Source: Alphaproteobacteria bacterium
GTDB lineage: Bacteria; Pseudomonadota; Alphaproteobacteria; SP197
DNA length: 64,000 nucleotides
Direction of reading: 5' to 3'
NCBI GenBank assembly: GCA_964291415.2
Contig: OZ219918.1
Location: 160,001-224,000 of the forward strand
In this document: positions 8,817-42,615 of the stretch, piece after piece
Layout: each line of letters begins with the position of its first letter
How positions within the stretch are numbered: the first letter of the stretch is position 1
Position numbers and translations under genes: made by a program
Notes under the pieces: generated by a model
Database searches by the model: none
Seen by the model: the letters and a program-made list of their open reading frames with translations, nothing else
What the model was told of the DNA's origin: nothing

Positions 8817-9219
8817 GGGAGGCCGGTCAGACGAAAAACCGGCAGGGGTGCTTGCGACAACGGGTGGTCGGCCTCTTGAAGAACTGACACTCGCCAACGT
8901 GCTCGCCGGTACGGTGGATGAGAGTGATGTGGGCATCCGCCCCGCCGTGCTTCGCCACCAGGGCACCGTCGCCCGCGGTGCCGGCCGCGACCGGCTGGCG
9001 GACAATTTCGAGCGAGGCGCCGAGCTTGTCGGTGTCCCCGACGAAGAGATCTTCGCCACCTACGAGAAGTTGCGCCCGGGGCGGGCGCGGAGCCGGGCGG
9101 AACTGATCGAACTCGCCCGTCATTACCGGCAGACCTACGGAGCACATCGCATCGCCGAACTGATCGAGAGCGCGGCCGAGGTGTACGAACGCCGCCGTCT
9201 CTTCCAGAAGAGGTTCTGA
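8809..9219 (+). CDS. pduE: Diol dehydratase small (gamma) subunit
   Basis: Motifs GRPLEELTLANVL, LADNFERGAEL..VPDEEIFATYEKLRPGR, YGA and AAEVYERRRL. Overlaps the upstream stop. Confidence 0.9.
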   Translation: MNEGGRSDEKPAGVLATTGGRPLEELTLANVLAGTVDESDVGIRPAVLRHQGTVARGAGRDRLADNFERGAELVGVPDEEIFATYEKLRPGRARSRAELIELARHYRQTYGAHRIAELIESAAEVYERRRLFQKRF

Positions 9220-21485: not shown

Positions 21486-22604
21486 TCAGCCGCCGTGGCG
21501 TTCCAGAGCTTCGAGCACCTGTGAATGGAAGGTATGCAGCGGAACCTCGGAGAACCACGAGTCCTCAGGGTCGCAAACATAGCGTCCCTGATCGTAGCCC
21601 AGGCTCGACAGGCCTCGCTGGACGCTTTCGACGATGGCGATATCCTGCTGGTTGAAGTGATCCATGAACAGGCTCTTCACGGCAAGAAGCTTGGGATCGA
21701 CGGGCCCCTCGGGGGCATAGATGTCCACGCGTTCCGCGCATCGGCCGACACCGTTCGGGAGCATTCGCAGCACCAGCAGGTTTCTGGAACCCGGCAAGCT
21801 CAACATGTTCAGCGTTGGCCAGGCCATCCACGCGACGTAGGGGGAGCCGGCCTCGATCTCGAGACCCTCGAACCCCGTCCGGCTGCGATAGAGGAAATAG
21901 GAGAACCGTTCCTCCTGGACGAAATCGTCAAGGCCTTCGTCCAGCACCCGGGCAAGTTCCGGGTGCGCGACAGGAATGTGATAGGCCTCCGCGAAGTTGT
22001 CGACGACGACTTTCCAGTTCGCTTCGATATCGTAGTGGAGACGTTCCACCGCGACGAAGTTCTCGATGTCCGGCAGATGCCGCGTGATTGTCCCGCCGAA
22101 CCGGCCCATCGTCGTCTCGAACGGTTCGCATCCGGAATCGAGATTGACGAACAGCAGGCCCGCGCTCTCGGCGACGTTGATTCTCCGCAGGGAGAATTGC
22201 CCACGATCGAAGTTCGCGAGCGACTCGGTGTGCGGTGCGTTCCGCAGCGTGCCGTCAAGGCCGTAGAACCACGCGTGATAGGGACAGGTGATGCCGACCT
22301 TGAGTGAACCGCGTCCCTTGAGCAGTTCATGGCCCCGGTGCTGACAGACGTTGAAGTATGCCCGGACCTGACCGCCTTGATCGCGCAGCACGACGATCGG
22401 CTGTCCTGCGATGCTGTCGGTAAAGTAGTCCCCGGGGCCGGGAATGTCGCTGACATGTCCGACATAGCACCAGCTCTTGCAGTGGACGGCGTGAAGCTCG
22501 CGCCGGTAGATGTCGTTATCGGTGTAGTAGCGCGACGGCAGGGTCGGCGATTCCAGGTGGTTTGTCCGGAAGGACCCTCGTTCGCCGACGGGCTGCTCGG
22601 TCAT
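21486..22604 (-). CDS. Rieske non-heme iron oxygenase alpha subunit (CntA/choline-betaine monooxygenase-like)
   Basis: Rieske CQH...CPYH, mononuclear Fe site NWKVVVDNFAEAYHIPVAHP and C-terminal DIAIVESVQRGL. Confidence 0.9.
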   Translation of the reverse strand: MTEQPVGERGSFRTNHLESPTLPSRYYTDNDIYRRELHAVHCKSWCYVGHVSDIPGPGDYFTDSIAGQPIVVLRDQGGQVRAYFNVCQHRGHELLKGRGSLKVGITCPYHAWFYGLDGTLRNAPHTESLANFDRGQFSLRRINVAESAGLLFVNLDSGCEPFETTMGRFGGTITRHLPDIENFVAVERLHYDIEANWKVVVDNFAEAYHIPVAHPELARVLDEGLDDFVQEERFSYFLYRSRTGFEGLEIEAGSPYVAWMAWPTLNMLSLPGSRNLLVLRMLPNGVGRCAERVDIYAPEGPVDPKLLAVKSLFMDHFNQQDIAIVESVQRGLSSLGYDQGRYVCDPEDSWFSEVPLHTFHSQVLEALERHGG

Positions 22605-22609
22605 GCTGG

Positions 22610-24649: not shown

Positions 24650-24713
24650 GTCGTCGGTTCCCGTCCAGGTTCAACGGGGCGGCAGCCTTGGGTGACCACC
24701 ACCCCGGGGCACG

Positions 24714-25814
24714 CTACAGTCCCGCCTTGACTTCCTCGAAAAGGAACTGGAGGTCGGACTCGCCCTGAATCGGCTGCTGGTAGATCCCCGCCGCGAGAAT
24801 CTCCTGGGGATTCTTCGACAGTCCGAGTGCCGTAAGCACATCTTCGCTCACGAGGTCGAAGGCCGACTGCGTGGCGGCACCGTAACCGAACACCTCCATC
24901 TCGTATGCGCGCGAGCGCGGATCGAGAAAGGCGTTGATCAACGCATGGGCCTTGTCCGGGTATGGACTGTCCGTCGCAATCGACAGGCCACAAACCCAGG
25001 TCATGGCGCCTTCCTTCGGATTCATGAAGGCGACCGGAAGACCCTGGCTCTTGAGGCGGACGACCGACTCGTTCCAGGTCGTGGCGGCGATCAGTTCGCC
25101 GCTGGCCAGACCCTGCTCCATGCCCGTGTAGTCATTCGAGTAGTAGCGCAGATTGGCGGTCAAATCCTCGAGATAGGGACGGATCGTGTCGAGTGCGTCC
25201 TGCGTGGAATAGTCAAATGGGTTGTCGAGACCCGCGACGATTCCGGCGATGACAACGCCATCAACGAGACTGTCGAATGCCGCCACCTGTCCCCTGTATT
25301 TGGGGTCCCAGAGAATCATCCAGGATTCGTCGTCGACATATTCCGGCGCGAGATCGGTTCGATAGAGAATTGAGGTGAGACCCCAGTCCACCGGCACCCA
25401 GTAGTGGTCGCCGTCGATGGTGCTTCCCGGAACGTCCTTCAATGCCGGGATGATGTCGCCCCAGTTGGCGAGGCGAGAGACATCGACAGGCTGGAGCAGG
25501 CCCGAATCGACCCACTTCTTGATGCTGTAGTTGCAGGGGAACACCACGTCGGGGGCAAAGCCCGCGCGCATCTTGGCGATGCCCTCTTCCTCGTCGCCCC
25601 AGAACGTGAAGTTCGGAGCACCGCCTTCCTGTTCGACATAGGCCTGCCAGAGATTCTCGTCATCGTAGCCGGCCCATCCGAAGTAGGTGGCCTGGCCGTC
25701 ATCGGCCCGCACGCCCTGGCTGGTCGAGGCAAGGTGGAACGTTGGAACGACGCCCGCTGCCGTCAACCCGGCCAACACGTTGCGGCGGTTCAGCGCAACA
25801 AGGGGATGTTTCAC
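24714..25814 (-). CDS. PotD/PotF-like amine solute-binding protein (Tat signal)
   Basis: Tat motif NRRNVL, then WAGY, VPVDWG and PKEGAMTW. GTG start with an AAGGAGG RBS. Confidence 0.85.
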   Translation of the reverse strand: MKHPLVALNRRNVLAGLTAAGVVPTFHLASTSQGVRADDGQATYFGWAGYDDENLWQAYVEQEGGAPNFTFWGDEEEGIAKMRAGFAPDVVFPCNYSIKKWVDSGLLQPVDVSRLANWGDIIPALKDVPGSTIDGDHYWVPVDWGLTSILYRTDLAPEYVDDESWMILWDPKYRGQVAAFDSLVDGVVIAGIVAGLDNPFDYSTQDALDTIRPYLEDLTANLRYYSNDYTGMEQGLASGELIAATTWNESVVRLKSQGLPVAFMNPKEGAMTWVCGLSIATDSPYPDKAHALINAFLDPRSRAYEMEVFGYGAATQSAFDLVSEDVLTALGLSKNPQEILAAGIYQQPIQGESDLQFLFEEVKAGL

Positions 25815-25949
25815 GGTAGCCTCCTTTGATCGTCTTCGCATGTCGGTGTGGGTTCCGGACCCACGATTGGCGACCAGTATCGGTTTGGCAGACGGCACGG
25901 TTCAATTGTCCCACTTGGGACACACGGCAATCAGCACTATGATTGTTCC

Positions 25950-30126: not shown

Positions 30127-30402
30127 GCCCGTTCCTCCACGTCTTGAGATGTGCAAGAGACTGGAACAGGTTGCCCGGAGCCTGCAAGTCCCGGACAACG
30201 GTCTGGACGGAATTCGGCCGCCGGCAGCCCGCCACTGAGGTCTTGCGCAAGAGATCGAACGAAGGCGGGACTTGACCCGACCTCCCGATTGCGTGAATCG
30301 TGGGGCCTACCAGGGCCACGGCGAAATGGACACGGCGGCCGACGCAATCCCGGGTCATGGGCCAAGATCACCGGCGGTTCGACAGGACGGGGAGGTGCAG
30401 CA

Positions 30403-31836
30403 ATGAGCAGAGGCACCACCGTCTTTGCCCTGATCGTTTCCGTGCTGCTCATCGCCACGGCCGGTGTACTCAACATGCTGGCAAGGCAAAGCGACGACGC
30501 TGTGTTCGCCGATGCGGTCGTGATGGCAACGGAGATTCGCGACGGAGTCCAGGAAACAGGAGCGTCGGCGGTCGAAAGCGCCCTGGAGACGACAGCACGG
30601 CTGGTGGCGACCCTCGAATCCGTTCCCGACCTCGCCGGGGAGGCCGACGCATTGGGGGCGGAGCTGCAACAGAGAAAGCGCGCGATCGATGCCATCCGTG
30701 ATGCGGAAGCGGCGCTCTTCGAAGCAACGGATGCCTGGAAGTCAGCGGTGGACATGGCGGCCGACGAGACACCGGATCTGGCCGGACTCGCGGAGGACAT
30801 GGACCGATATCTCGCCGGGACCGGACCCGCTCCGACCCTTGAGGCCGTGCGCTCCCGTGGCGATGTGACACTCGTTGCGGCAGCAGACAGGCTGGTGACC
30901 GAAAGGCACGCTCTGGACGAGCTGCATCAGGAGCTGGCTGCCGACAGGGTGACCGGTGTGGCCGAGCAACTTGTCATGTCCCTGGAGATCGAGCGTGCCC
31001 GTCGGGCGCTGGTCGTACGCAACTATGACGATGGTACGGTTGCCGCCCTTGGCGCCCTGGTGCTGTTCTGGGTTCTGCTCGGCATTCGCGGACGCCGTCG
31101 CAGTGAGCCGCCGCATCGGAAAGCCGATCCCGTAAGGGGGACACTGTTCATCCGCGGTACGGCGGCAGCGGTGGCGATGCGGGCGCAACGTCTCGCTTCG
31201 CACACCAATGCGCTCAGAGAGTCTCGCCAGAGGCTTGGAAACGCCATCGCGGAGGCCGGGCTCGACCGGTCACTCAATGACGATGCCCCCCTTCACCGGG
31301 AAGTGGAGGCCATGGACGGTCATCTCGCCACCTTGCGAGACGAAACCGGTGAACTGTCGGCACTGGGCCAGCGTCTATGGACTCTTGCCGGGGAGACGGC
31401 GCCTGCGTCGACGGCCAGTATCAACGCGTGCGTCAGGGAAGCACTCGAGGCGATCAGGGCAGGCCACCGGATTCCCGTCATGACGGAACTTGCCGATGTC
31501 GGTGATGTCAGGGGGGTGGCGTCCGATATCGTACTGGCCCTGACGGCCCTCATCGAACGTGTCCTCAGGGCCTCCCGGGAATCGGGACGGGGCCACAGCG
31601 CCATTCGCGTCTTCACCACGGCCGGTGATGACCAGGTGCATGTCACCATCACCGGAGGCGCTCCCCTTCCGCGGTTCACGGAGCGCACGTTCAGGCCGTC
31701 GGGTACCTCCCACGAGCTGGCGCTGGCCATCGCTCTCCTCAGGCGTCATGGCGGCAGCGTGATCCTGGGTTCGTCCGTCGCCGGGGAAGCCTCGGCGCGC
31801 ATATCCCTTGCCGCCGCATCGGGAGACCAGACATGA
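30403..31836 (+). CDS. Membrane protein with a degenerate histidine-kinase-like (HATPase_c) C-terminal domain
   Basis: TM, helical periplasmic region, TM, coiled coil, then SINACVREAL...DIVLALTALIE...IRVFT...VHVTITGG...AIALLRRHGGSVI...ARISL. The kinase scaffold is visible but N, D and G boxes are not conserved. GGAGG RBS. Confidence 0.6.
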   Translation: MSRGTTVFALIVSVLLIATAGVLNMLARQSDDAVFADAVVMATEIRDGVQETGASAVESALETTARLVATLESVPDLAGEADALGAELQQRKRAIDAIRDAEAALFEATDAWKSAVDMAADETPDLAGLAEDMDRYLAGTGPAPTLEAVRSRGDVTLVAAADRLVTERHALDELHQELAADRVTGVAEQLVMSLEIERARRALVVRNYDDGTVAALGALVLFWVLLGIRGRRRSEPPHRKADPVRGTLFIRGTAAAVAMRAQRLASHTNALRESRQRLGNAIAEAGLDRSLNDDAPLHREVEAMDGHLATLRDETGELSALGQRLWTLAGETAPASTASINACVREALEAIRAGHRIPVMTELADVGDVRGVASDIVLALTALIERVLRASRESGRGHSAIRVFTTAGDDQVHVTITGGAPLPRFTERTFRPSGTSHELALAIALLRRHGGSVILGSSVAGEASARISLAAASGDQT

Positions 31837-33824
31837 AGGCGCTGCGCTTTCGGGTTCGCAACTATCGCAACATCGAGGACAGCGGCTGGGTGCCACTCGA
31901 TCCGGTCACGGTCCTTGTCGGACGCAACGAGTCGGGAAAGACGTCCCTTCTGAAGGCGCTCAACAAGTTCAATCCGGGCACGGCGGAAACCTATGATGCC
32001 CAGCGTGAGTTTCCACGTGACCGCTACACGCGCGACTACGTCCTTGCCGGTTCTGCGGGTGCGGAGTGGCCTGTCTGTTCCATAGAGTTCGAAATTCCGG
32101 AACAGCAGAAGAGCGATATCGCGACCCTGCTGGGCCCGGACCGGGACGTGCCCGAGACGGTCACCGTCACGCGCCACTACGATGGCTCCCTCGGTTTTTC
32201 CTACATGCCGCAGATCGGAGCCAAACCGGCACGGCCAGACCCTCTCATGGAGACCCTCGAGGATCTCGCGCTTTCGGACGACTCGCCGCGCCTGGCTGCA
32301 TGGTCCAGCGCGTGGCACGGCCGGTTCGCCGGACTCGATGACGTCACAAGCGCCACCGGCCGCGCCCTGCTCACCGAAATCGACGGCGAGATTTCCGGGC
32401 TCGATGATGAACGCCTCGGCGCTCTTGGCGCGATCGTCACCACGATGCTGCGGATGCCCTTCGGAAGCAGGGTGATCGATCACGTCAACGCCCTGGTGGA
32501 ACGCGAACTGCCGCGCCTCGTCTACTTCGAGAACTACGGGGTGCTCGACAGCGCCATCTGGCTGCCCGAGATGTTGCGCGGCCTTGAACGCGAGGATCCG
32601 GAGCCGCGTTTTCGAACCGCGCTGGCGCTCTTCCGTCATGCGGGCCTTGATCCGCAGGATATCGCGGCACTCGCCGCCCCGGGCAGCAGGGCATCGGGCG
32701 AGGACATGCAACGCCAGATGGAGGAGCGGGCGATCCGGCTCAATGCCGCGTCGGTCGACATCAGCCGTCGCTGTAGCGAGCTGTGGTCGCAGCGGCGCCA
32801 TCGCATCCGCTATCACGTCGACGGAGACTATTTCCGCATCAGGGTTGCCGACGATTCACTGGAGGATGTGGAGATCGAACTGGAATCCCGCGGCAAGGGC
32901 TTCCAGTGGTTCCTCTCGTTCTTCCTCGTCTTTGCAGCGGAGTCCGAGGGCAGCATGGGGGATGCCATCGTACTGCTGGACGAGCCCGGTCTCAGCCTTC
33001 ACCCGACGGCGCAACGTGAACTGCTGGTGTTCTTCGAGCGTCTGTCCTCGCAGAACCAGGTCATCTACACGACTCACTCACCGTTCCTTATCGACGGCGA
33101 TCACCTCGACCGGGTGCGTCCGGTGTTCGAGGACGACACGGGCCATGCCCGCATCCTCAAGGGTTCGTGGCCCGCCCATCCGGAAACGGTGTTCGCGCTC
33201 AAGGCGGCTGCCGGATATGCGATGTTCGATTCCCTTGCGGAACAGGATCGATCGCTGCTTGTCGAACAGGTCAGCGATGCGTGCTACCTGGAGGCGCTGT
33301 CGCGACAATGTGGCCGGACGGGAAGGAGCGCGCTGGGCAGTTCCGTCGACGTGGTGCCCTGCGGCGGTGCGGCCGTGTGCGGCTACCTGGCATCACTTCT
33401 CATGGCCGAGAACCGTCGTCCTCTCATCCTCTTCGACGGCACCGACGCCGCACGTCTTCGCCGGCATGGACTGGTGAGGGAACTCCTTGACGAGGGAGAC
33501 AGCTCGATTGTTCTCCTCGACGAAGCCCTCGGCTGGTCCGGACATGACGTGTGTCTCGAGGACCTGTTCGGAGAGAGCATCATCCTCGAAGGCCTCGGGA
33601 ATGCGACCGGAATCAGCCTGTCGCTTGCCGATGACGGACATCAGGCCGGCCTCGTCGGTCGCATCGAGAGCGCAGCGGCGGCGGCGAACATTGCGCTACC
33701 CCGCTCCTGGCGGCTGTCGACGGCCCTGGCGGTGACGTTGTCGGAGGCGTCCCTGCCGGATGACGTCCTCGATTCGGCCTCGCTCCTCTTCACCAAGCTT
33801 GCCGGTGACGGCCAGGGACGGTGA
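31833..33824 (+). CDS. OLD-family-like ABC ATPase with a C-terminal TOPRIM-like domain
   Basis: VRNYRNI, Walker A GRNESGKTS, signature SRGKGFQW, Walker B LLDEPG..LHP and TTHSP, then TOPRIM-like LLVEQVSD..YL, VPCGG and EDLF. Confidence 0.8.
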   Translation: MKALRFRVRNYRNIEDSGWVPLDPVTVLVGRNESGKTSLLKALNKFNPGTAETYDAQREFPRDRYTRDYVLAGSAGAEWPVCSIEFEIPEQQKSDIATLLGPDRDVPETVTVTRHYDGSLGFSYMPQIGAKPARPDPLMETLEDLALSDDSPRLAAWSSAWHGRFAGLDDVTSATGRALLTEIDGEISGLDDERLGALGAIVTTMLRMPFGSRVIDHVNALVERELPRLVYFENYGVLDSAIWLPEMLRGLEREDPEPRFRTALALFRHAGLDPQDIAALAAPGSRASGEDMQRQMEERAIRLNAASVDISRRCSELWSQRRHRIRYHVDGDYFRIRVADDSLEDVEIELESRGKGFQWFLSFFLVFAAESEGSMGDAIVLLDEPGLSLHPTAQRELLVFFERLSSQNQVIYTTHSPFLIDGDHLDRVRPVFEDDTGHARILKGSWPAHPETVFALKAAAGYAMFDSLAEQDRSLLVEQVSDACYLEALSRQCGRTGRSALGSSVDVVPCGGAAVCGYLASLLMAENRRPLILFDGTDAARLRRHGLVRELLDEGDSSIVLLDEALGWSGHDVCLEDLFGESIILEGLGNATGISLSLADDGHQAGLVGRIESAAAAANIALPRSWRLSTALAVTLSEASLPDDVLDSASLLFTKLAGDGQGR

Positions 33825-34492
33825 ACGGCAGATTCGCCGTCTACTACACGCCCGCAACCACGTCGGAACTGGCGCGATTCGCTGCGGACTGGCTGGGCGG
33901 CGAGGCCGCCGCCGGCATCCCGGAAGACCTTCACCGCGACATCGTCCGCATTCCCGCAGCGTACGGGTTCCATGCCACGCTGAAGGCTCCGTTTGCTCTC
34001 GCCCCGGGCGCGTCAGGGGACGAGCTCGCCACAGCCACCGCCGCCCTTGCCAGGGACCTTGCCGCATTCAGCGCTCCGCCGCTGGATCTCGCCACTGTCG
34101 ACGGGTTTCTTGCGCTCGTGCTTCGTGAACCATGTCCGGCCATGCACGACCTCGCCGCGGCGTGCGTGACGGTACTCGACCACTTCCGCGCGCCGTTGAC
34201 CGAAGGGGAAAGGGAACGCCGTGTCGCGCAAGGCCTGTCGGCGCGCCAGGAAGCGTTGCTCGACCGCTGGGGCTATCCATTCGTTCTCGACGAATTCCTC
34301 TTTCACATGACGCTGACCCGGCGCCTCGATGATGGTCTCAGCGCACGTATCGCCGACTCACTGGGGCGCAGGCTCGGCCATCTCATCGGGCGGCCGTGGT
34401 GCCTTGATTCCATCTCCCTCGTCCACCAGGCGTCGCGCCAGGAGCCCTTCACCATGAGGGCGCGCTTTCCACTCGGACATTCTGAAGGATGA
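33821..34492 (+). CDS. DUF1045 family 2H phosphoesterase-like protein
   Basis: Motifs RFAVYYTP, YGFHATLKAPF, WGYPFV and FHMTL give two HxT motifs. GTGA overlap with the upstream gene. Confidence 0.85.
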   Translation: MNGRFAVYYTPATTSELARFAADWLGGEAAAGIPEDLHRDIVRIPAAYGFHATLKAPFALAPGASGDELATATAALARDLAAFSAPPLDLATVDGFLALVLREPCPAMHDLAAACVTVLDHFRAPLTEGERERRVAQGLSARQEALLDRWGYPFVLDEFLFHMTLTRRLDDGLSARIADSLGRRLGHLIGRPWCLDSISLVHQASRQEPFTMRARFPLGHSEG

Positions 34493-34847
34493 CGGATCCT
34501 CAACGCCGATCGTACAGGGTGCCGCGGCCGAATGCTGTCTGACGGATGAGCAACGCGACCTGCAGGAACGGCTGATCGGGCCCCAGGCCGTCGTATCGGA
34601 GCAAGCCGGGGAGCACCCCTGAAAGGGTGTCGGGGCTCTCCAACGTCGCGGCATCCTTGTCCGCATCACTGCCGGACAGGAACCCACGTCAAGGACACGC
34701 CGGGGCTTGTCCGCAGGGGGCGTACGCATGTCGACTCCATCGGCCTCGGGACGGATTTCGCCGATCAGATCAGGGTTTGCATTGACGCCGAGAAGCGGCT
34801 ATAAGCATCAATAGCAGGAAACTTCGTTTCATCAGAGGAAACAGGCC

Positions 34848-35759
34848 ATGTGCGGAATTGCCGGTATCCTGTTGAAGAATGGAGACAGTGGAATCGATAC
34901 CGGGACGGCGCTGATCGACATGCTCGACGGCTGTCAGCACCGGGGACCGGACTCCACGGGGTTCGCCCTATACGAGAGCGGCGAGGACGGACAGCTGAAG
35001 CTGCGGTTCCATGTCGGTTCCGACAACGAGGCGGGCGACGCCATCGCCGCCCTCAAGACGGTCTTCGACGAACACGGCGCCGAGGTCATCGAGGAAGAGC
35101 GCATCGCCGGCAGCTACCGTGTCGTGGTGCGTTTCAGCGGTGACCTGCAGAAGTTCTCGTACGCCGTGGAACACGCCGCCAAGGTGGTGTCGATCGGCGA
35201 GAGCCTGGAGATCGTGAAGGACGTGGGCGGCGCCCATGATGTCGATGACACCTACGACGTCCATATGTTCAGGGGTTCGCACGGCCTGGGACACGTGCGC
35301 CTTGCCACCGAATCGGATGTCAAGCCGGAGGCCTCGCACCCCTTCTGGGCGACCGGGTTCGCCGATGTCGCGATCGTCCACAACGGACAGATCACGAACT
35401 ACTGGAAGATGCGCCGTCGTCTCGAGCGCCGCGGGTTCGCGTTCGCGACGGACAACGACAGCGAGCTCATTGCCGTCTATCTCGCCGACAAGATGAACCA
35501 GGGGATTCCCTTGAAGGACTCCCTGGCCTCGTCCATTGACGACATGGACGGGACATTCTCCTTCCTCGTGTCGACCCGCGACGAGATCGGCTACGCGAAG
35601 GACCGGCTTGCCGCCAAGCCGATGATCATGTTCGAGAACGACGACATCATTGCCATTGCCTCTGAAGAGGTCTCGCTCAATCGCCTGTTCCCGGGCCGCG
35701 CGCTCGACACCCGTGAACCGCCTCCGGGAAGCTACAGAACATGGTCACGATCGATCTGA
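34848..35759 (+). CDS. Class II glutamine amidotransferase (GlxB/MgsA-like)
   Basis: N-terminal MCGIAG nucleophile, HRGPDSTG, GHVRLATES, HPF, HNGQITN and TDNDSE. Confidence 0.9.
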   Translation: MCGIAGILLKNGDSGIDTGTALIDMLDGCQHRGPDSTGFALYESGEDGQLKLRFHVGSDNEAGDAIAALKTVFDEHGAEVIEEERIAGSYRVVVRFSGDLQKFSYAVEHAAKVVSIGESLEIVKDVGGAHDVDDTYDVHMFRGSHGLGHVRLATESDVKPEASHPFWATGFADVAIVHNGQITNYWKMRRRLERRGFAFATDNDSELIAVYLADKMNQGIPLKDSLASSIDDMDGTFSFLVSTRDEIGYAKDRLAAKPMIMFENDDIIAIASEEVSLNRLFPGRALDTREPPPGSYRTWSRSI

Positions 35760-37714
35760 AGGACCTGTCGACCCGCGAAGCCAACGAGAGCATTCGCGAG
35801 GCGGCGGCACGGGGCGAGACCATCGAGGTTCTCAATCCCGACGCTCGCCACCACATCGGTGTCGGCGTCATCCACCCGGTTGACATCCACGTCCGTGGAT
35901 CGGCCGGATACTTCTGCGCCGGACTGACCGACACGCCGCGCTTTCACATCGAACGCAATGCCGGCTGGGGGCTGGCAGACAACATGTACCGTGGATCCGT
36001 CGTCGTCGGCGGCAACGCCGGCGCCATAGCCGGGGTGGCGATCCGCGGCGCGGAAGTGGTGATCCGGGGCAACATGGGGTCGCGGGCCGGACAGGTCATG
36101 AAGAAGGGGACGCTGCTGTGCTGCGGCAATGCCAACTTCATGGCCGGCTACATGATGTATGGCGGGCGCATGATCATTCTCGGCGAATCAGGCGAGCGTC
36201 TCGGCGAGGACATGACGGGAGGCGAGATCTTCCTTGGCGGCGATCTGGTGTCACTGGGGTCCGACGCCATGGAGACCGATACCGCGGGAGACGAGATCGA
36301 CGACATCCGGGCCTTTCTCGACCGCTACGAGATTCCCTTCCGGGGCAGCTTCCGCAAGATCGTGAATGCCGGAAAGAAACTGCGCTACGGCACCCCGGAG
36401 CGGCAGGTGCGCTCGATTCCCTACTTCAACTTTTCCGGCGACAGCGACTACTGGAATCACAAGGTCCAGGAAGACGTCTACATCAAGTCCCAGATCGGAC
36501 GCTACCGGGTGAGGGGATACGGCGGCGCCCGCGAACTGCCGCACCTTTCCGACCTTGCCTTCGCCAGGGATGTCATTCCGGATGCAGTCGGCGACGATCC
36601 GGTCTCCAGGGTCCGGATGCACACGCTGATCGGCGGCAAGAACGGCGCCAAACCCCTTGACCTGACGATGCCTGTCCTCATTGCTCCGATGAGCTACGGC
36701 GCTCTTTCCCGTTCCGCCAAGCAGGCGGTCGCCATTGCCTCGGGCATGGCGGGAATCGCCGAGAACACCGGGGAAGGCGGCATGAGCGACGCCCAGCGCG
36801 ATGCGGCAGGTCAGCTCATCTTCCAGATGCTCGGTGGCCGTCTGGGCTGGAACATCCACGACATGAACCGGGCGGATGGCCTGGAGATCTACATTTCCCA
36901 GGGCGCCAAGCCGGGCTTCGGCGGTCAGCTCATGGCCAAGAAGGTGACGAAGGAACTGGCCGAGATCCGCGGCATCCCGGCCGGCATCGACCTTCGTTCG
37001 CCGTCACGCCATCCCGACATCCTCGGTGCCGACGATCTCGTCATCAAGGTCGAGGAGTTGCGCGAGGCGACGGGCTACCGTCTGCCGGTGAGCGTCAAGC
37101 TGGGGGCGGGTCGCATTCACGACGACATCAAGATCGCCGTCAAGGACGGCTTCGACTTCGTCGAACTCGACGGCATGCAGGGCTCGACCGGCGCCGGTGG
37201 CGCCGAGGTGATGGAGTATGTCGGCATCCCGACCATCTCTGCCATCTGCGAGGCGGAACGCGCTCTTGCATCCATCGGCCGCCGCCAGGACATCGAGATT
37301 GTCCTCATGGGCGGGCTGAGAGACGGGGTCGATGCCGTCAAGGCCATGTGCCTGGGCGCCGACGCCGTGGCGCTGGGGACCGCCGCCATCATTGCCGGCG
37401 GCTGCATTGCCTGCATGCAGTGTCATGTCGGCCAGTGCGTGACCGGTATCGCCACCCAGGATCCCGAGCACGAGAAGCGCTACAAGCCCGAAATCGAGGC
37501 GCAGCACATCTACACCTTCCTGGAGAGCGTGCGCTGGCAGATTGCGGCCGTCACATGGGGACTGGGATACGATGACGTACGCGGCCCCTGCCGCGACGAT
37601 CTCGTGGCTCTCACGCCCGAGGCGGCCGAGATCACCGGCCTTCCCCTCTGTCCCGAACGCCGGAATGCGGGGCTTCCCGAAATCGATGCGGCGATGGAAC
37701 GGGCTCTTCGATGA
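35741..37714 (+). CDS. Fusion of a GXGXG beta-helix domain (GlxC/MgsB-like) and an FMN-binding glutamate synthase domain (GlxD/MgsC-like)
   Basis: Glycine-rich repeats (GSAGYFCAG, GNAG, GNMGSRAG), followed by MSYGALS, TGEGG, QGAKPG.GG, RSP, DG.QG.TGA and CIACMQCHVGQC.TGIATQD. Confidence 0.9.
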   Translation: MVTIDLKDLSTREANESIREAAARGETIEVLNPDARHHIGVGVIHPVDIHVRGSAGYFCAGLTDTPRFHIERNAGWGLADNMYRGSVVVGGNAGAIAGVAIRGAEVVIRGNMGSRAGQVMKKGTLLCCGNANFMAGYMMYGGRMIILGESGERLGEDMTGGEIFLGGDLVSLGSDAMETDTAGDEIDDIRAFLDRYEIPFRGSFRKIVNAGKKLRYGTPERQVRSIPYFNFSGDSDYWNHKVQEDVYIKSQIGRYRVRGYGGARELPHLSDLAFARDVIPDAVGDDPVSRVRMHTLIGGKNGAKPLDLTMPVLIAPMSYGALSRSAKQAVAIASGMAGIAENTGEGGMSDAQRDAAGQLIFQMLGGRLGWNIHDMNRADGLEIYISQGAKPGFGGQLMAKKVTKELAEIRGIPAGIDLRSPSRHPDILGADDLVIKVEELREATGYRLPVSVKLGAGRIHDDIKIAVKDGFDFVELDGMQGSTGAGGAEVMEYVGIPTISAICEAERALASIGRRQDIEIVLMGGLRDGVDAVKAMCLGADAVALGTAAIIAGGCIACMQCHVGQCVTGIATQDPEHEKRYKPEIEAQHIYTFLESVRWQIAAVTWGLGYDDVRGPCRDDLVALTPEAAEITGLPLCPERRNAGLPEIDAAMERALR

Positions 37715-40227
37715 CGGACGCCAACCTCCTGCCGGAAGAACTCGCGGACGACACCGCGGACCGGCACTTCGTGCCCGCTCCCTGCCAGATCGCCTGCCCG
37801 GTCGGCACGGACGCGCCATCCTACATCGCCCACATCTGGGAAGGCAGGTTTGCCGAGGCCTTCGAGGCCATCACGGCGACCAACCCGTTCAGTTCGATCT
37901 GCGGGCGCGTCTGCGACGCACCCTGTGAACCGGCGTGCCGGCGTACGGCAAGCGACGGACCCGTGCAGATCCGCAATCTCAAGCGCTTCGTCATGGACAA
38001 GCTCGGGGCCGAGTGGGTGCCGCCGGCGGCTGAGGTCACCCGTGAAGAGAGTATCGGCATCGTCGGAGCCGGGCCGGCCGGACTGGTGGCGGCCCACGAC
38101 CTTGCCGTCGCCGGATTCAGGGTCGATGTCTATGAGATGACCGACCGTCCAGGCGGCATGATGATCTGGGGCATTCCGGCGTTTCGCCTGCCCGCCGGCA
38201 CCCTGAACGAAGACATGGAGCGGCTGCAGGCCCGCTGTCCCGGACTCGCCATCCACACGAACGTTGCCCTGGGCCGGGACATCACGCTCGCCGACCTCAA
38301 GAAACGCCACGCTGCGGTGGGGCTCACCATCGGTTCCTGGTGGGGCAAGACCATGGGGATCCCCGGTGAGGATGACGGCCGCGTGATCGACGGCGTCGAG
38401 TTCCTGCGCCGGGTCAACGCCGGAGAACGCCCGGCAATGCCGGCGAAAGTCGTCGTCGTTGGCGGCGGCGATGTCGCCATGGATGCCTGCCGGGCCGCCC
38501 TGCGCCTTCCGGGGTGCGAGGAGGTCACGGTCATCTACCGGCGCGGCCCGGAGGACATCCCGGCGCGAAAGATCGAACTCGAGGGCGCCATCGAGGAAGG
38601 CATCGAGTTCATCTACAACACGCAGCAGGTCGGCGTTCTTGCCGACAACGAGGATCGCCTGAGACTGCGTTGCGTGCGCACCACGGCCGGCGAACCTGAT
38701 GCAGACGGCCGTCGTCGGCCCGTCACGGTCGAGGGATCCGAGCACGACATCATGTGCGGCATGGTCATCGCCGCGGTCGGCCAGTACGGCGCCTGCGACG
38801 ACCCCGCCACCCGCAACCTCATGTCCGGCGATCGCGTGCGGACCGACTGGGAGACCATGCGGACCGATGATCCGCAGATCTTCGCCGCCGGTGACGGAGC
38901 TTTCGGGGGCTCCACCATCGTCATGGCCATGAGCCATGGCCAGCGGCTGGCCTACTACATCAAGGCGTGGCTCGACGGCATCGACGATCCCGTTCCCTAT
39001 CGTACGCCGTGGCGGACGCGGCGTGTGCAGGTGGCCCAGGATCTCAAGTGGGAACTCTTCGGCCTGCACCATCCGCCGTTCCACGGCGTCGGCGACAATC
39101 CGGTCGCATTCCCGGAAATCGAGTCGACCTACACCTGGGAGGAGGCGCGCAACGAGGCGGCGCGATGCTATCGCTGCGACGCCGAGACGGGCTCGGCCGA
39201 CTACTCTGTCGTCAACCGGGAGGACATCTTCCTGATGGCGCGGATGAAGCGCGAGGATACGGCGCGCCAGTCCGGCATGCTGGCCAAGCGCCTGCGGCCG
39301 CGTGACAATCCGTTTCCCGGGGACCGTCCGGCCACTGTCGACGACCTGGTGTTCCTGCCGGCCAATCTGTCGAGACTGGTGATCGACCCCTATCGCGAGG
39401 CCTGCAAGGTGGCGACGGATCTGGGGTCCGGACGCATGGAGGTGGCGCAACCCTTCTTCGTGACCGGCTTCGACAACGCACCGGCGGATGTGAAGCGGGG
39501 GGTCGGCCGGGGAATCGCGGAAGCGGCGGCAGGCTACATCGGCATGCAGCCGGTCGCCGACGATGTGGCGTGGTTGCAGCTGGTGGTGGAGGGGCAGATT
39601 CCGCCGCAGGAGGACGCCGCGGGCCTCATTCACGTCATCGGTCCCCGCTTCGAGGCGCCAACGAGGATCCGGCGGTTTCGCGAGGACCAGATCCTCGGCC
39701 TCGCCGTCTCCCACGGGAGCGCTCTCGAGGATGCCATCGGGTTTGCCCTCGATCAGGACCTCGACGTCCTCCTGGTCAACGGCAACACCGCCACCGGACG
39801 CGACTGGCCGGAACTCACCGGCGCGCCCGACCTCACGCTCATGCGCGACACCATCGCCTGCCTGCGTCGGCTCAACATGGAAGAGGAGATCGACATCCTC
39901 TGGTTCGGCGGTCTGCGTTCCGGAACCGATGCCGCCAAGCTCATTGGCATGGGTGCGAAGTCGCTGGTCATGGGCATGACCGTGGCCCTGGCGGCCGGAG
40001 CCGAGTTTGACGAGACCCACCGGCTTACGTTCGCCCCCGACGTTACGGCCGACGAGTGCTCCCGGGCGGTTGCCAACATTCTGAAATCCGCGGTGGGCGA
40101 GGCGTCGATGATGGCCCGCTGCACCGGCAAGACCAATCTCCACAACCTGGAACCCGAGGATCTGCGCGCCCTCACGCTCGCCACCGCCGAGGCCACCGGA
40201 CTGGTTCTCGCCGGACACACGTACTGA
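37711..40227 (+). CDS. GltD-like FAD/NAD(P)H Fe-S oxidoreductase fused to a degenerate glutamate-synthase FMN-barrel domain
   Basis: PCQIACP, CGRVCDAPCE..C, GAGPAG, GIPAFRL, GGGDVAMD.CR and EAARCYRC, then a C-terminal half ending in ARCTGK..LHNLEPEDL.AL, like the GlxD C-terminus. Confidence 0.85.
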   Translation: MTDANLLPEELADDTADRHFVPAPCQIACPVGTDAPSYIAHIWEGRFAEAFEAITATNPFSSICGRVCDAPCEPACRRTASDGPVQIRNLKRFVMDKLGAEWVPPAAEVTREESIGIVGAGPAGLVAAHDLAVAGFRVDVYEMTDRPGGMMIWGIPAFRLPAGTLNEDMERLQARCPGLAIHTNVALGRDITLADLKKRHAAVGLTIGSWWGKTMGIPGEDDGRVIDGVEFLRRVNAGERPAMPAKVVVVGGGDVAMDACRAALRLPGCEEVTVIYRRGPEDIPARKIELEGAIEEGIEFIYNTQQVGVLADNEDRLRLRCVRTTAGEPDADGRRRPVTVEGSEHDIMCGMVIAAVGQYGACDDPATRNLMSGDRVRTDWETMRTDDPQIFAAGDGAFGGSTIVMAMSHGQRLAYYIKAWLDGIDDPVPYRTPWRTRRVQVAQDLKWELFGLHHPPFHGVGDNPVAFPEIESTYTWEEARNEAARCYRCDAETGSADYSVVNREDIFLMARMKREDTARQSGMLAKRLRPRDNPFPGDRPATVDDLVFLPANLSRLVIDPYREACKVATDLGSGRMEVAQPFFVTGFDNAPADVKRGVGRGIAEAAAGYIGMQPVADDVAWLQLVVEGQIPPQEDAAGLIHVIGPRFEAPTRIRRFREDQILGLAVSHGSALEDAIGFALDQDLDVLLVNGNTATGRDWPELTGAPDLTLMRDTIACLRRLNMEEEIDILWFGGLRSGTDAAKLIGMGAKSLVMGMTVALAAGAEFDETHRLTFAPDVTADECSRAVANILKSAVGEASMMARCTGKTNLHNLEPEDLRALTLATAEATGLVLAGHTY

Positions 40228-40238
40228 AGAGCCCGGTT

Positions 40239-40772
40239 TCAGGTTCTCGTGGCGGGGGCGAGATCGATGACCCTGGGGTCGTATCCGCAGGCCGAAAGGA
40301 AGCGCAGTAGATCACGCGGATGGAGGGCCGTCGTCCGGTTGTTGACGAGCGGGTGCAGGTTGACGAGGTCCGTTTCCATGAGGGCGCGATCGATGTAGAC
40401 GCCGATCTCCTCGCCCGTGTCATTGACGAGCGCAAGGGGCGTCACGGCCCCGGGCTCGACACCGAGAATGTCGCGCACCCTTTCGGGGCGGGCGAAGCTC
40501 AGGCGGGCCGAGCCGATGAGTCCGGCGAGGGCCTTGAGGTCGAGTTCGCGTGACTCCTCGACCACCGCGAGCCACAGCCGCGCCTTCTTGTCCTTGAAGA
40601 ACAGTGTCTTGCAGTGGAGTCCAGGGAGGCTGCCGCGCAACGCGCGGTTGTCGGCCACGGTATGGACGGGTTCATGTTCGTGGGTCGTGCTGGGGATGCC
40701 GAGCTCCTCGAGTCTGGCGAGCAGGTCGCCGGGCGTCGCCCTGCCCGGCATCGTCGTCGTCGGTCGGTTCAT
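40239..40772 (-). CDS. YbaK/ProX-like aminoacyl-tRNA editing domain protein
   Basis: Motifs HEPVHTV, HCKTLF.KDKK, RLSFA, LGVEPGAVTP and HPLVN. Confidence 0.88.
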   Translation of the reverse strand: MNRPTTTMPGRATPGDLLARLEELGIPSTTHEHEPVHTVADNRALRGSLPGLHCKTLFFKDKKARLWLAVVEESRELDLKALAGLIGSARLSFARPERVRDILGVEPGAVTPLALVNDTGEEIGVYIDRALMETDLVNLHPLVNNRTTALHPRDLLRFLSACGYDPRVIDLAPATRT

Positions 40773-40905
40773 GGGGCATGTGATCCGGTCTGGTGATGCA
40801 ATCAGGTCCCGGCTTTCCGGCGGTCGACAAATGTCCTACACTTCCGGGGTCTTGATGCAAGGGATCTTGAGCCCTTGTTGATCACTTCTGGGAGGATCCA
40901 GGGAG

Positions 40906-42354
40906 ATGACTGATCAACTAGCTTCGCTTACCGTCATCTTCACGGAATTCTACTACTGGGTCACGGTCGTCATCATGTTCCTGATCCACGTAGGGTTCTG
41001 TGTCTATGAGGTCGGCGCCTCGCGCCGCAAGAATCTTCAACACACGCTGATGAAGAACACGATGCTGATCCCGCTGGTCACCATCACGTTCTTCTATTTC
41101 GGATGGTGGATCTACTTCGCCTTCCCCTACTTCCCGCTGATGGGCGGATTATCGGATGCGCCTTGGGCCGTGCCGTGGTCCGAACTCATGGGCACCCACA
41201 TGGGCGGTGCGGTCACCGTTCAGGCCGCGAGCCTGACGTCGGATGACACCATGTTCTGGGCCCGCATCAACGGGGTCTTCTGGGCAGCCTTCCTGCTGTT
41301 CTCATGGACCACCGCGTCCATCGTCTCCGGTGCCGTCATCGAACGCATCAAGACCCAGGCGTTCCTGCTCGTGGTCGTTCTTGTCGGTTCGGTGACATGG
41401 ATTATCGATGCCGCCTGGGGCTGGAGCTGGAATGGCTGGATGGTGCAGCTGTGGGGCTATCACGATGCCTACGCATCCTCGGTGGTGCACGGCATTGCCG
41501 GTGGCTCGGCGCTGGGCATCCTGGTCGTGCTGGGTCCCAGACTCGGCAAGTTCGCGGCCGACGGGACGCCGCGCAACATACCCCAGAACAATCCCTGGCT
41601 CGTCACGGTCGGGCTGTTCCTGATCTATACCGGGTTCTGGGGATTCTATGCCGCGTGCAACATTCCCATCATCGACTACACCGCTGATGTCATGGGAGCC
41701 GAGGGAGCAGCCTTCTTCACGGCAACCAACATCTACCTGACCCCGACATCGCTTTCCGCCATTACCTTCAACTTCCTGATGTCGCTCTCGGGCGGTCTCC
41801 TGGCAGGCTATCTGGTCTCGAGGGGGCAGCCGTTCTGGAGCTATTCGGGCGGTCTTGCAGGCGTCATCTGCGCCTCTGCCGGCAACGATCTCTATCATCC
41901 GATCGAGTCGATGGTCATCGCCATGGTCGGTGTGTGGATCGCCTACAAGATGCACCACTGGGTGGAGAGAAGGTTCAAGATCGACGATGCGGTGGGCGCC
42001 GTGGCCGTGCACGGCTACGCCGGCTTCGCCGGGACGGTGATCGCGGGCTTCATGCTCTGGGGTTATCCCTCCAACGTCGCCTACGAAGCGACGGGCTGGT
42101 TCGGCAACACCGACGGTGTGGCATCCATCAATCCGCTCGGCCAGTTCCTTGGCGCCGTGCTGATGTTCTGGGGTCTTGGCTTCCTGCCCTGCTGGGTGCT
42201 GGCCAAGGTTCTCGATGGCCTGGGCTGGTTGCGTGTGCCGCGCGAAGTCGAACTTGCCGGTCTCGATACCCATGACTACGGGGATGCCTTCCCGTACCAC
42301 GCCTATCGTGACACGGCGATGGAAGACATCGACCGCGATCTCGCGAAGAGCTGA
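40906..42354 (+). CDS. amt: Ammonium/methylammonium transporter (Amt family, atypical)
   Basis: Multi-TM protein with SGAVIER, VVHG.AG, GPRLGKF, IDDAVGAVAVHG and RV....E..GLD. GGAG RBS. Confidence 0.9.
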   Translation: MTDQLASLTVIFTEFYYWVTVVIMFLIHVGFCVYEVGASRRKNLQHTLMKNTMLIPLVTITFFYFGWWIYFAFPYFPLMGGLSDAPWAVPWSELMGTHMGGAVTVQAASLTSDDTMFWARINGVFWAAFLLFSWTTASIVSGAVIERIKTQAFLLVVVLVGSVTWIIDAAWGWSWNGWMVQLWGYHDAYASSVVHGIAGGSALGILVVLGPRLGKFAADGTPRNIPQNNPWLVTVGLFLIYTGFWGFYAACNIPIIDYTADVMGAEGAAFFTATNIYLTPTSLSAITFNFLMSLSGGLLAGYLVSRGQPFWSYSGGLAGVICASAGNDLYHPIESMVIAMVGVWIAYKMHHWVERRFKIDDAVGAVAVHGYAGFAGTVIAGFMLWGYPSNVAYEATGWFGNTDGVASINPLGQFLGAVLMFWGLGFLPCWVLAKVLDGLGWLRVPREVELAGLDTHDYGDAFPYHAYRDTAMEDIDRDLAKS

Positions 42355-42381
42355 GCGGTTCCGGAAAGGAGACAGGAAACC

Positions 42382-42615
42382 ATGTCTACCAATGTTGAAA
42401 GCTGGTCCGATGTTGCGTCTCTGGGCGCCATCTATCCCTTCCCGGGAATCGAATGGCTCCTCGTCCTTGCTGGCGTCGCCATCTGGGTGATCTGGCACGT
42501 CTGGCAGATTCGTTCGGAGAATTCCGAGTACGATGCGGCGGTCCAACACTACAAGGACGTCGGCATGGACAAGGCCCTCGATCATCGAGGGCGCCATGAC
42601 GCCATGCTCGACTGA
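42382..42615 (+). CDS. Small single-TM protein downstream of amt
   Basis: MSTNVESW...GAIYPFPGIEWLLVLAGVAIWVIWHVWQIRSEN. Strong AAGGAGACAGGA RBS and followed by terminators. Confidence 0.8.
   Translation: MSTNVESWSDVASLGAIYPFPGIEWLLVLAGVAIWVIWHVWQIRSENSEYDAAVQHYKDVGMDKALDHRGRHDAMLD

Follow-up and report, generated by a model that had tools for sequence, protein, structure and literature searches.

The locus described here raises the question of which reaction is catalysed by the products of three overlapping genes that, taken together, encode an amidotransferase, a fused GXGXG and flavin mononucleotide (FMN) synthase protein, and a GltD-like reductase joined to a second barrel. The genes lie in a stretch of 64,000 nucleotides from an Alphaproteobacteria bacterium (GTDB lineage SP197; assembly GCA_964291415.2, contig OZ219918.1, positions 160,001 to 224,000 of the forward strand), which we call the window and to which coordinates refer unless another contig is named. 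We lean towards the view that this trio would be an NAD(P)H-coupled gamma-glutamylmethylamide:2-oxoglutarate enzyme, in short a 'methylamine GOGAT' (GOGAT being glutamate synthase), and consider this somewhat more probable than the opposite. A preliminary description of the window had suggested an enzyme linked to NAD(P)H and intermediate between GOGAT and N-methylglutamate synthase, perhaps acting on methylamine or another amine. That suggestion is now favoured by the position of the trio, in related loci, in the place of mgsABC (also named glxBCD, the genes of N-methylglutamate synthase), by the presence of gmaS, the gene for gamma-glutamylmethylamide synthetase, in nearly all carrier genomes, and by the retention of Fe-S ligands in the synthase subunit.

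Three overlapping genes encode a predicted split-type synthase with its own reductase

The three open reading frames (ORFs), ORF1 (34848-35759, 303 aa), ORF2 (35741-37714, 657 aa) and ORF3 (37711-40227, 838 aa), are all on the + strand and overlap as had been described, by 19 nt between ORF1 and ORF2 and by 4 nt between ORF2 and ORF3. The 19-nt overlap is also present in distant relatives (7130-8068/8050-9999 in locus L016; 7106-8017/7999-9957 in locus L017). None of the three proteins reached a curated NCBIfam cut-off. Pfam, PDB and profile searches nonetheless bear out both the inventory of domains and their partition into an amidotransferase, a GXGXG-FMN protein and a GltD-like protein with a second barrel.

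From its Pfam matches and alignment, ORF1 is a predicted class-II, N-terminal nucleophile (Ntn) glutamine amidotransferase (GAT) subunit, the equivalent of MgsA/GlxB, with Cys2 as the putative catalytic residue. It matches GATase_6 (69.1 bits) and GATase_7 (64.8 bits) and begins with MCGIAG, of which M1, C2, G3, I4, A5 and G6 are invariant in the 14 sequences aligned; an Ntn amidotransferase with an N-terminal Cys, as in GltBD, is thus present, with C2 kept in 14/14. ORF1 shares 35-37% identity with the MgsA proteins of canonical mgsABC-gmaS loci and 43% with the GAT of a second split cluster in the same genome, described below.

ORF2 joins a GXGXG beta-helix domain (residues 35-165; 35843-36235, +; PF01493, 48.5 bits against a cut-off of 32.5), which also matches FwdC-type beta-helix chains in the PDB, to an FMN-binding synthase domain (residues 301-609; 36641-37567, +; Glu_synthase PF01645, 315.7 bits), which matches GltB chains in the PDB at E values of 4.6e-41 to 8.6e-33. 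By Pfam and tree placement, it is the likely equivalent of an MgsB-MgsC fusion. The position of GXGXG on the N-terminal side of the FMN domain, put forward earlier as part of a new arrangement, is indeed seen in ORF2 and amounts to the mgsB-mgsC gene order in fused form. In alignment, the FMN domain keeps the motifs PMSYGALS, NTGEGG, QGAKPGFGGQ and GGLRDGVD. It also keeps the Fe-S ligand motif C555-x2-C558-x2-C561-x4-C566 (37403-37438, +), all four Cys of which are invariant among 13 sequences; the motif stands at the same position as that of GltB with a different spacing (CxxCxxCxxxxC vs Cx5Cx4C). These Cys are absent in 4/5 MgsC proteins adjoining gmaS, a loss that rests on five sequences. 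Since a synthase fed by a partner protein needs an Fe-S cluster and an internal FMN shuttle does not, the retention of the Cys in ORF2 fits ORF3 as a real electron donor.

The first part of ORF3 (residues 1-495; 37711-39195, +) is GltD-like in Pfam and PDB comparisons, with an Fe-S domain (Fer4_20, residues 23-98, 86.5 bits), FAD-binding and NAD(P)H-binding Rossmann folds (Pyr_redox_2, residues 116-410, 84.7 bits) and a C-terminal CYRC extension. Scores against curated GltD-type models fall below their cut-offs (NF009410, 382 against 516; TIGR01318, 255 against 483; TIGR01317, 181 against 448). The best PDB sequence matches are the Nfn/Stn-type proteins 9bov_A, 9n5u_A and 8oh5_C, the first covering residues 22-540 at E 1.3e-92, and the solved GltD chains 6s6s_G and 2vdc_G match at E ~2.6e-63. 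Eight ORF3 Cys are invariant (C25, C29, C64, C68, C72, C76, C486 and C489), the last two aligning with a CxxC of 9bov_A, and we infer that the eight would bind two [4Fe-4S] clusters. An IYRRG stretch after the second Rossmann motif is presumably a hint of NADPH preference. The architecture of ORF3 is far beyond chance: its 120 best relatives in the database share 63-94% identity with it over 91-100% of the protein. They come from metagenome-assembled genomes and metagenomes, where they carry generic names only. Electron bifurcation by ORF3 was considered on account of the Nfn/Stn-type matches and set aside, as nothing further points there.

The trio also behaves as one unit. Its loci, 20 from genomes and 80 from metagenomes, were dereplicated to 75 clusters. 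GAT, GXGXG-FMN and GltD parts are all present in 46/46 of the dereplicated clusters that have at least 4.5 kb upstream of the ORF3 barrel, and GltD lies directly upstream of the barrel in 67/67 clusters with at least 1.6 kb upstream, with a gap of 91-97 nt between the two tblastn matches at nearly every locus. Among genome loci, 19/19 hold the complete trio.

The ancestry of the synthase domain was examined in a tree of 43 FMN domains, built by a quick method with Shimodaira-Hasegawa-like approximate likelihood ratio test (SH-aLRT) support from rows hand-picked among the loci at hand. The ORF2-type sequences, 26 in all, group together in a single tight clade (SH-aLRT 100, stem length 1.46). 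Five gmaS-adjacent MgsC proteins, defined as such by their position next to gmaS and not by experimental characterisation, form a separate clade (support 99), and GltB is separated from the split-type FMN domains by a branch of length 1.9. The FMN protein of the second split cluster is sister to the MgsC clade and keeps the Fe-S Cys. These positions mark ORF2 as a third, separate lineage among the split-type synthases, and not as a fragment of GltB. Judged from sequence, the three ORFs are best explained as one enzyme of the glutamate-synthase superfamily that comes from the split MgsABC/GlxBCD lineage rather than from GltB.

In related loci, the trio stands in the place of mgsABC beside gmaS

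A GmaS-type gene lies directly 3' of ORF3 in 15/60 dereplicated clusters with at least 1.5 kb downstream. The ligase at trio loci passes TIGR03105 (674 vs a cut-off of 469.6) and is ~70% identical to the characterised Rhodovulum enzyme; its representative in locus L068 matches PDB 7cql_A at 652.9 bits (E 1.6e-195). According to PMC7948447, the protein of entry 7CQL is a gamma-glutamylmethylamide synthetase from Rhodovulum sp. 12E13 that has been characterised biochemically. Trio loci with gmaS also hold genes for FolD, SoxB/SoxD/SoxA-like proteins, the formate-tetrahydrofolate ligase Fhs, a regulator with helix-turn-helix (HTH) and cupin domains, and an Amt transporter, and the SoxA-like neighbour carries a GcvT domain.

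The order of these genes is informative. One genome (G191) has SoxB, SoxA, HTH-cupin, ORF1, ORF2, ORF3 and GmaS contiguously, and the same core recurs in G300, G155 and G097. The canonical order, seen in G039 and G142, is HTH-cupin, MgsA, MgsB, MgsC, GmaS, with SoxA upstream in G142; the canonical locus of G281 holds MgsA, MgsB, MgsC and GmaS without a regulator match. In all five genomes checked (5/5), mgsC is directly upstream of gmaS, and the canonical loci L155-L157 have no GltD-like gene between mgsC and gmaS. Regulators from canonical and variant loci alike are 56-75% identical to the regulator of L017, which served as the query. The trio is found between the same regulator and gmaS and therefore replaces mgsABC in an otherwise orthologous locus.

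A shared locus position would also suit a redox-neutral MgsABC-like synthase, converting glutamate and methylamine or gamma-glutamylmethylamide to N-methylglutamate and ammonia, in which the GltD-like module would do no more than re-reduce FMN oxidised by accident; in an oxidative version, electrons would pass from glutamate or N-methylglutamate to NAD(P)+. The classical N-methylglutamate synthase uses a flavin-mediated exchange mechanism. In PMC6237917, the reductant and stoichiometry of the canonical enzyme are presented as unsettled and its redox cofactor as unidentified, with NADH, NADPH or ferredoxin named as candidates. We nevertheless consider a redox-neutral or oxidative trio very unlikely: a subunit of 838 aa that keeps eight invariant Fe-S Cys along with sites for FAD and NAD(P)H would be a large investment for repair, and the absence of Fe-S ligands from most gmaS-adjacent MgsC proteins points to a real mechanistic difference rather than to an accessory.

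Co-occurrence with gmaS extends beyond adjacent genes. In an evenly drawn sample of 301 genomes of the class (which includes G240, negative for both genes), gmaS was found in 43 and the ORF3 barrel in 15. Among barrel genomes, 14/15 have gmaS, compared with 29/286 of the others, the exception (G081) being 79% complete. The Fisher odds ratio of 124 (p 2.5e-12) is overstated, because related genomes are not independent and relatedness inflates the value; the 15 carriers represent 13 genera and 10 families. The barrel adjoins gmaS in six of them (G300, G191, G097, G164, G155 and G157). In three of these (G191, G300 and G157), no more than two PF01645 genes reach E <= 1e-40, and one of the two is GltB. 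An ORF2-type gene is seen beside gmaS in G191 and G300, and the barrel is beside gmaS in G157. With GltB and an ORF2-type gene as the two PF01645 genes, G191 and G300 have no room for a canonical mgsC. In a phylum-level sample, the barrel was found in 0/400 genomes other than the source genome. So far, the trio is seen as a minority system, mostly in uncultured marine lineages.

In the source genome, the remaining genes of the proposed pathway lie outside the window. A solitary GmaS-type gene (C1:1057332-1058636; TIGR03105, 655.5 bits) and a SoxB/A-like operon (C1:431275-435906; 58% and 54% identical to the corresponding proteins of L068) are on contig C1, and an orthologous HTH-cupin regulator is on contig C2 (C2:745451-746005). 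The link to methylamine made in the preliminary description is thus carried by related loci and by genes elsewhere in the genome; within the window itself, it finds only Amt.

This divergent Amt-family transporter (482 aa; 40906-42354, +; PF00909, 170.8 bits) lies 680 nt downstream of the trio and is its sole informative neighbour in the window. The earlier remark that it is atypical holds well: it scores below the curated cut-offs (TIGR00836, 171 against 343; TIGR03644, 136 against 514), and its best PDB match is only 6eu6_A (E 8.5e-21, with both pore histidines aligned). It recurs beside the trio: relatives 60-69% identical occur in 14/35 dereplicated long-flank loci, which makes Amt the most frequent tracked neighbour, and they span alpha- and gammaproteobacterial loci. 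The transporter is possibly a (methyl)ammonium importer, and it may represent a dedicated methylammonium-transporter subfamily.

A degenerate second barrel predicted to dock the amidotransferase

The C-terminal part of ORF3 (residues 545-838; 39343-40224, +) was identified by profile search, AlphaFold modelling and fold alignment as a degenerate FMN-type triose-phosphate isomerase (TIM) barrel. Pfam gave a borderline PF01645 match on the last 338 residues (19.9 bits against a cut-off of 20.4, E 4.5e-4), and a 28-sequence profile aligned residues 670-838 to residues 457-639 of the ORF2 FMN domain with 97% probability (E 2.7e-11). The AlphaFold model is an FMN-type TIM barrel (mean predicted local distance difference test score, pLDDT, 74.1; predicted template modelling score, pTM, 0.74). 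Foldseek against the PDB returned generic FMN TIM barrels only (TM ~0.47), so VIA-align was needed to place the aligned range of GltB. The latter matched the model to isopentenyl diphosphate isomerase II (Z 16.7), to residues 833-1172 of Azospirillum GltB, which are its FMN domain (Z 14.7), and to residues 532-932 of dihydropyrimidine dehydrogenase (1gt8_A, Z 14.4). Against the GltB sequence of this genome, a profile from the ORF3 alignment, which is of low diversity (effective number of sequences, Neff, 1.8), gave no usable match (probability 1%).

The barrel keeps the motifs LPANLSRLVIDPYREAC (549-565), the phosphate loop GGLRSGTDAAK (733-743) and ARCTGKTNLHNLEPED (802-817). Alignment with ORF2, MgsC-type and other split FMN proteins shows that the motifs GMSxGALS, GEGG, QGAKPGxGG and SxxRHPD are gone from it, as are the Fe-S Cys. 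ORF2 presents the opposite pattern, with catalytic motifs and four Cys kept and the N- and C-terminal MgsC motifs diverged, and this opposite retention makes the two barrels complementary. On the strength of its profile and motifs, the ORF3 barrel is a duplicated and degenerate FMN barrel of the MgsC/GlxD type.

The preliminary description had counted all GltBD domain types as present, among them the degenerate central barrel of GltB. The ORF3 barrel is not recognisable as that central domain. A whole-genome search with PF04898, the central-domain family, had GltB on contig C1 as its sole match and no match in ORF1-3, and the fold alignment lands on the FMN domain of GltB. Because PF04898 is found only in GltB, the barrel cannot be called a central domain; it looks like the outcome of a separate duplication and degeneration of an FMN barrel.

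A barrel-profile search of 1.84 billion representative proteins returned 108 proteins at E <= 1e-30. Among them are a natural fusion in the order GXGXG-FMN-GltD-barrel (P0129, 1486 aa) and a GXGXG-FMN-barrel protein with no GltD part (P0132, 1031 aa), along with stand-alone barrels of 344-371 aa (P0138, P0142, P0166, P0172, P0184, P0192 and P0205). The stand-alone proteins share the motifs LPANLTRLVIDPYRE and NLEPEDLR. In the Protein Atlas, clusters of stand-alone barrels of 320-384 aa appear in Pseudomonadota, Chloroflexota, Thermodesulfobacteriota and Thermoplasmatota, and we treat these as leads only. Stand-alone barrels may serve other split glutamate-synthase-like enzymes as a fourth subunit that has gone unrecognised.

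How the barrel might contribute to the enzyme was addressed by complex prediction with three chains, ORF1 and residues 240-640 of ORF2 with the barrel as partner. The median ipSAE interface score was 0.68, against 0.38 for the best of three controls, and the mark used in calibration is reached by 58/80 solved complexes and by 2/110 mismatched pairs. Runs agree in at least 96% of contacts, with a partner pLDDT of at least 80. In the model, residues 546-563 and 803-816 of the barrel lie opposite residues 181-194 and 234-236 of ORF1, and the barrel also touches the ORF2 FMN domain. Most of the ORF1 interface residues are invariant in 14 sequences, and those of the barrel belong to the invariant motifs common to MgsC-type proteins and lost from ORF2. 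The model thus supports binding of the barrel to ORF1 and to the ORF2 FMN domain. The possibility that ORF3 does not associate with ORF1 and ORF2, which had been raised at the outset, is contradicted by their constant co-occurrence in 46/46 clusters, by the natural fusions and by the controlled complex model.

A proposed reaction

The substrates, direction, stoichiometry and electron path that we infer for the trio are as follows. Methylamine would enter the cell, perhaps through the neighbouring Amt, and GmaS, encoded elsewhere in the genome, would convert it to gamma-glutamylmethylamide. ORF1, docked on the ORF3 barrel, would hydrolyse this gamma-glutamyl amide by way of Cys2 and hand on the amine, which would condense with 2-oxoglutarate at the FMN site of ORF2; reduction of the imine by FMNH2 would give N-methylglutamate. 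Electrons would take the GltBD route, from NAD(P)H to the FAD of ORF3, through its two [4Fe-4S] clusters to the ORF2 Fe-S cluster and on to FMN. The barrel itself would be non-catalytic and would serve as the platform on which ORF1 is docked against ORF2. Overall, gamma-glutamylmethylamide + 2-oxoglutarate + NAD(P)H would give N-methylglutamate + glutamate, after which a SoxBDAG-like N-methylglutamate dehydrogenase would convert N-methylglutamate to glutamate and methylene-tetrahydrofolate. With N-methylglutamate as the intermediate, methylamine nitrogen would reach glutamate without free ammonia.

It is tempting to go further and hypothesize that in this trio we see the missing 'methylamine GOGAT', equipped with an NAD(P)H:Fe-S reductase of its own, and that the barrel is a newly evolved, non-catalytic copy of the FMN domain for docking of the GAT. 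We hold this fuller version tentatively, at slightly less than an even chance. If it is true, the barrel would be an independent re-run of the duplication thought to lie behind the central domain of GltB.

Several observations weigh against the proposed assignment to methylamine. As many as 45/60 clusters have no gmaS right after ORF3, 11/60 carry a LarA-like gene in that position, and 11/35 long-flank clusters have none of the tracked neighbours; with gmaS in 15/60, the trio is thus often, but by no means always, tied to methylamine. Within the window, only Amt adjoins the trio, and gmaS and the sox-like genes are on contig C1. The ORF2 FMN domain falls outside the clade of gmaS-adjacent MgsC proteins and is 38-39% identical to MgsC. 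All domain types of NADPH-GOGAT are present, so glutamine is a possible substrate. The complex model was obtained with custom alignments and three chains, unlike the calibration of the tool, and may borrow from solved GltS structures. The main local weakness is the second split cluster, a run of DAO, GS-like (glutamine synthetase-like), GAT, GXGXG and FMN genes (C2:807888-814237, - strand; L006 7888-14237) whose FMN protein is sister to MgsC. This cluster could be the real N-methylglutamate synthase where it is present, and this genome thus has two candidates for that activity.

The breadth of domain types is the starting point of one competing explanation, in which the trio would be another NAD(P)H glutamate synthase that depends on glutamine. 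Such a GOGAT isoenzyme would serve ammonium assimilation under nitrogen limitation together with Amt, and the proximity of gmaS would reflect no more than shared nitrogen regulation. Every GltBD module is there, the 2-oxoglutarate-type motifs are intact and the eight GltD-like Cys are invariant; Amt is the most frequent tracked neighbour and the sole one in the window, and most clusters lack gmaS directly after ORF3. We find this explanation unlikely, though. The genome already has a canonical gltD-gltB pair (C1:566438-572349), and the FMN domain of ORF2 groups with split MgsC/GlxD-type proteins, far from GltB. An isoenzyme would also leave the exact mgsABC placement of the trio, the enrichment of gmaS in carriers (14/15 vs 29/286) and the FolD, Fhs and SoxBDA-like one-carbon genes of the same loci to be accounted for.

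The variety of contexts is the basis of another explanation, that the trio acts on the gamma-glutamyl amide of a different amine, for example ethylamine, or on an amide donor of an unrelated kind, with methylamine as one of several substrates across the family. Genes for LarA-like, major facilitator superfamily (MFS) and DAO-type proteins follow ORF3 in those 11/60 clusters, neighbourless long-flank loci exist as noted, and a GS-like/DAO/GlxBCD-type cluster sometimes shares the locus. The characterised GmaS also takes ethylamine, according to PMC7948447. A role mainly with other amines nevertheless seems to us very unlikely: in the tree, ORF2 proteins of gmaS-type contexts are mixed with those of LarA-type contexts, and they share 73-81% identity with that of the window, which points to one activity, and the tetrahydrofolate-linked one-carbon genes (FolD, Fhs, SoxA with GcvT) fit a methyl group specifically. 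A methylamine-directed, NAD(P)H-coupled enzyme is thus the reading that we carry forward.

As observations in their own right, the LarA-like genes mark a second recurrent context of the trio. Their proteins (L018, L019, L057 and others) are homologues of nickel-pincer 2-hydroxyacid racemases that score 334 bits against NF033504, below its cut-off of 460, and in L018 the order is trio, LarA-like gene, then an MFS transporter and a DAO/DAO_C oxidoreductase.

Comparison with known enzymes

With MgsABC, the trio shares the order of class-II GAT, GXGXG and FMN barrel. In trio relatives, the locus position is shared as well: the HTH-cupin regulator precedes, gmaS follows directly and soxBDAG-like genes lie alongside. 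The FMN domains of both fall in one split-type superclade, separate from GltB. It differs in that MgsB and MgsC are fused in ORF2 and in that the trio adds a GltD-like NAD(P)H/FAD/2x[4Fe-4S] module, its clusters being predicted, and a degenerate second barrel. ORF2 moreover has the four Fe-S Cys and lacks a 17-residue insert of MgsC, and the N- and C-terminal motifs of MgsC are lost from ORF2 and survive in the ORF3 barrel.

In GltBD, an alpha chain of ~1500 aa carries the GAT, central, FMN and GXGXG domains, with a separate beta chain of ~470 aa. The trio shares with this enzyme the Ntn-Cys GAT, the FMN/Fe-S synthase domain, the GXGXG beta-helix and a GltD-like subunit (here below the curated GltD cut-offs), as well as the proposed electron path and channelling of amide nitrogen. 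In contrast to GltBD, it has neither a ~1500-aa alpha chain nor a PF04898 central domain. Its domains are spread over three proteins of 303, 657 and 838 aa with GXGXG before FMN, and its second barrel is of the FMN type and is fused to the GltD-like protein. The trio is therefore GltBD-like in its predicted chemistry and MgsABC-like in its genomic role, and it fails the defining features of both.

Dihydropyrimidine dehydrogenase has the same order as ORF3 of Fe-S domain, FAD/NADPH folds and TIM barrel. The ORF3 barrel is, however, a relative of the Glu_synthase family and not of the dihydroorotate dehydrogenase type, it has lost the substrate loops and lysine-bearing strands, and ORF3 ends at the barrel with no C-terminal Fer4/di-cluster domain. 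Barrels of the ORF3 type also occur fused to an ORF2-type protein without GltD (as in P0132) and as stand-alone proteins. We considered ORF3 as a self-sufficient reductase of this kind with a catalytic barrel and rejected the idea, given a barrel that is without substrate loops and that occurs without GltD.

The second split cluster on contig C2 has GAT, GXGXG and FMN parts in common with the trio and keeps the Fe-S Cys in its FMN protein. It differs in having no GltD-like gene and no second barrel and in its linkage to a different GS-like gene, whose product is only 27% identical to GmaS. Its proteins are a DAO-type FAD oxidoreductase (529 aa), the GS-like ligase (548 aa), GAT (311 aa), GXGXG (281 aa) and FMN protein (468 aa), and clusters of this type share the locus with a trio in L144, L087 and L024.

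The open-access literature that was searched contained no description of a GltD-linked N-methylglutamate synthase or of the ORF1-3 trio, so the possibility left open in the preliminary description, that the architecture belongs to an already characterised enzyme, found no match there. In PMC3160333, the SAR11 version is a plain glxBCD with glnT.

Significance for methylamine use

Methylamine is a widespread marine source of nitrogen and one-carbon units. Of its pathway, what follows GmaS is understood least, and a version of N-methylglutamate synthase with an attached reductase makes the question of the reductant directly testable with NAD(P)H; if our reading is true, it would answer that question for one lineage. 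The gene gmaS is a marker of methylamine use present in ~23% of surface-ocean genomes, according to PMC7948447. Surveys that score canonical mgsABC would miss some organisms, since 3/15 carriers (G191, G300 and, probably, G157) have no other candidate gene. The architecture also represents domain duplication, degeneration and transfer of an interface, which bears on the origin of the GltB central domain, and the enzyme would be of interest for the enzymatic production of N-alkyl amino acids.

Flanking sequence and other features of the window

The intergenic leader upstream of ORF1 (34493-34847, +), read directly off the sequence, contains a TTGCAT..17 nt..TATAAG-like stretch and a ribosome-binding-like stretch, AGAGGAAAC. 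A consensus promoter scan of 34400-41000 gave 0 promoter-like sites, so the TTGCAT/TATAAG-like stretch is not established as a promoter. A terminator scan of the same interval gave one terminator-like site, which lies on the minus strand; shuffled sequences gave more. Between ORF3 and Amt lies a YbaK/tRNA_edit-like gene (40239-40772, - strand; PF04073, 105 bits), which occurs only in loci whose ORF3 is 82-96% identical to that of the window and in none of the loci with 60-76% identity (L016-L019, L022-L024 and L026); it is probably unrelated to the enzyme.

Two sponge-metagenome runs from two studies, X4 and the RNA library X20, have contigs ~89-99% alike over 33500-42500, which is consistent with a sponge-associated source bacterium. 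Other runs labelled sponge, coral reef or marine reached 0.21-0.30 of the sampled words and were not counted. Short contigs of X20, 97-99% alike, fall on parts of ORF1, ORF2, ORF3 and Amt. The upstream bins over 34403-35004 have no X20 cover, and the DNA run X1 covers both. Contigs are no proof of transcription, and RNA libraries may contain DNA; we therefore draw no conclusion on expression from X20.

Just upstream of the trio, three overlapping genes (30151-34492, +) encode a 561-aa ORF, a 663-aa AAA_15/AAA_21 ATPase with weak PtuA and retron-effector-like matches, and a DUF1045/2H-phosphoesterase-like protein (TIGR03223, 240.8 bits vs a cut-off of 248.95). They are conserved in close relatives only and may include a defence-type ATPase pair. 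Further upstream on the opposite strand (21486-25898, -), a Rieske oxygenase alpha subunit with a weak GbcA-like match (159 bits, cut-off 670), a flavoenzyme of the old yellow enzyme (OYE)/FadH type with Fe-S (679 aa; Oxidored_FMN and Pyr_redox_2) and a PotD-like binding protein are found together; they may form a demethylase module for N-methyl or quaternary amines, which would suit an amine-scavenging lifestyle. Genes for a B12-dependent diol/glycerol dehydratase lie at 6315-9219 (+), where a single 833-aa ORF joins the large to the medium subunit (Dehydratase_LU and Dehydratase_MU) and the small subunit comes next.

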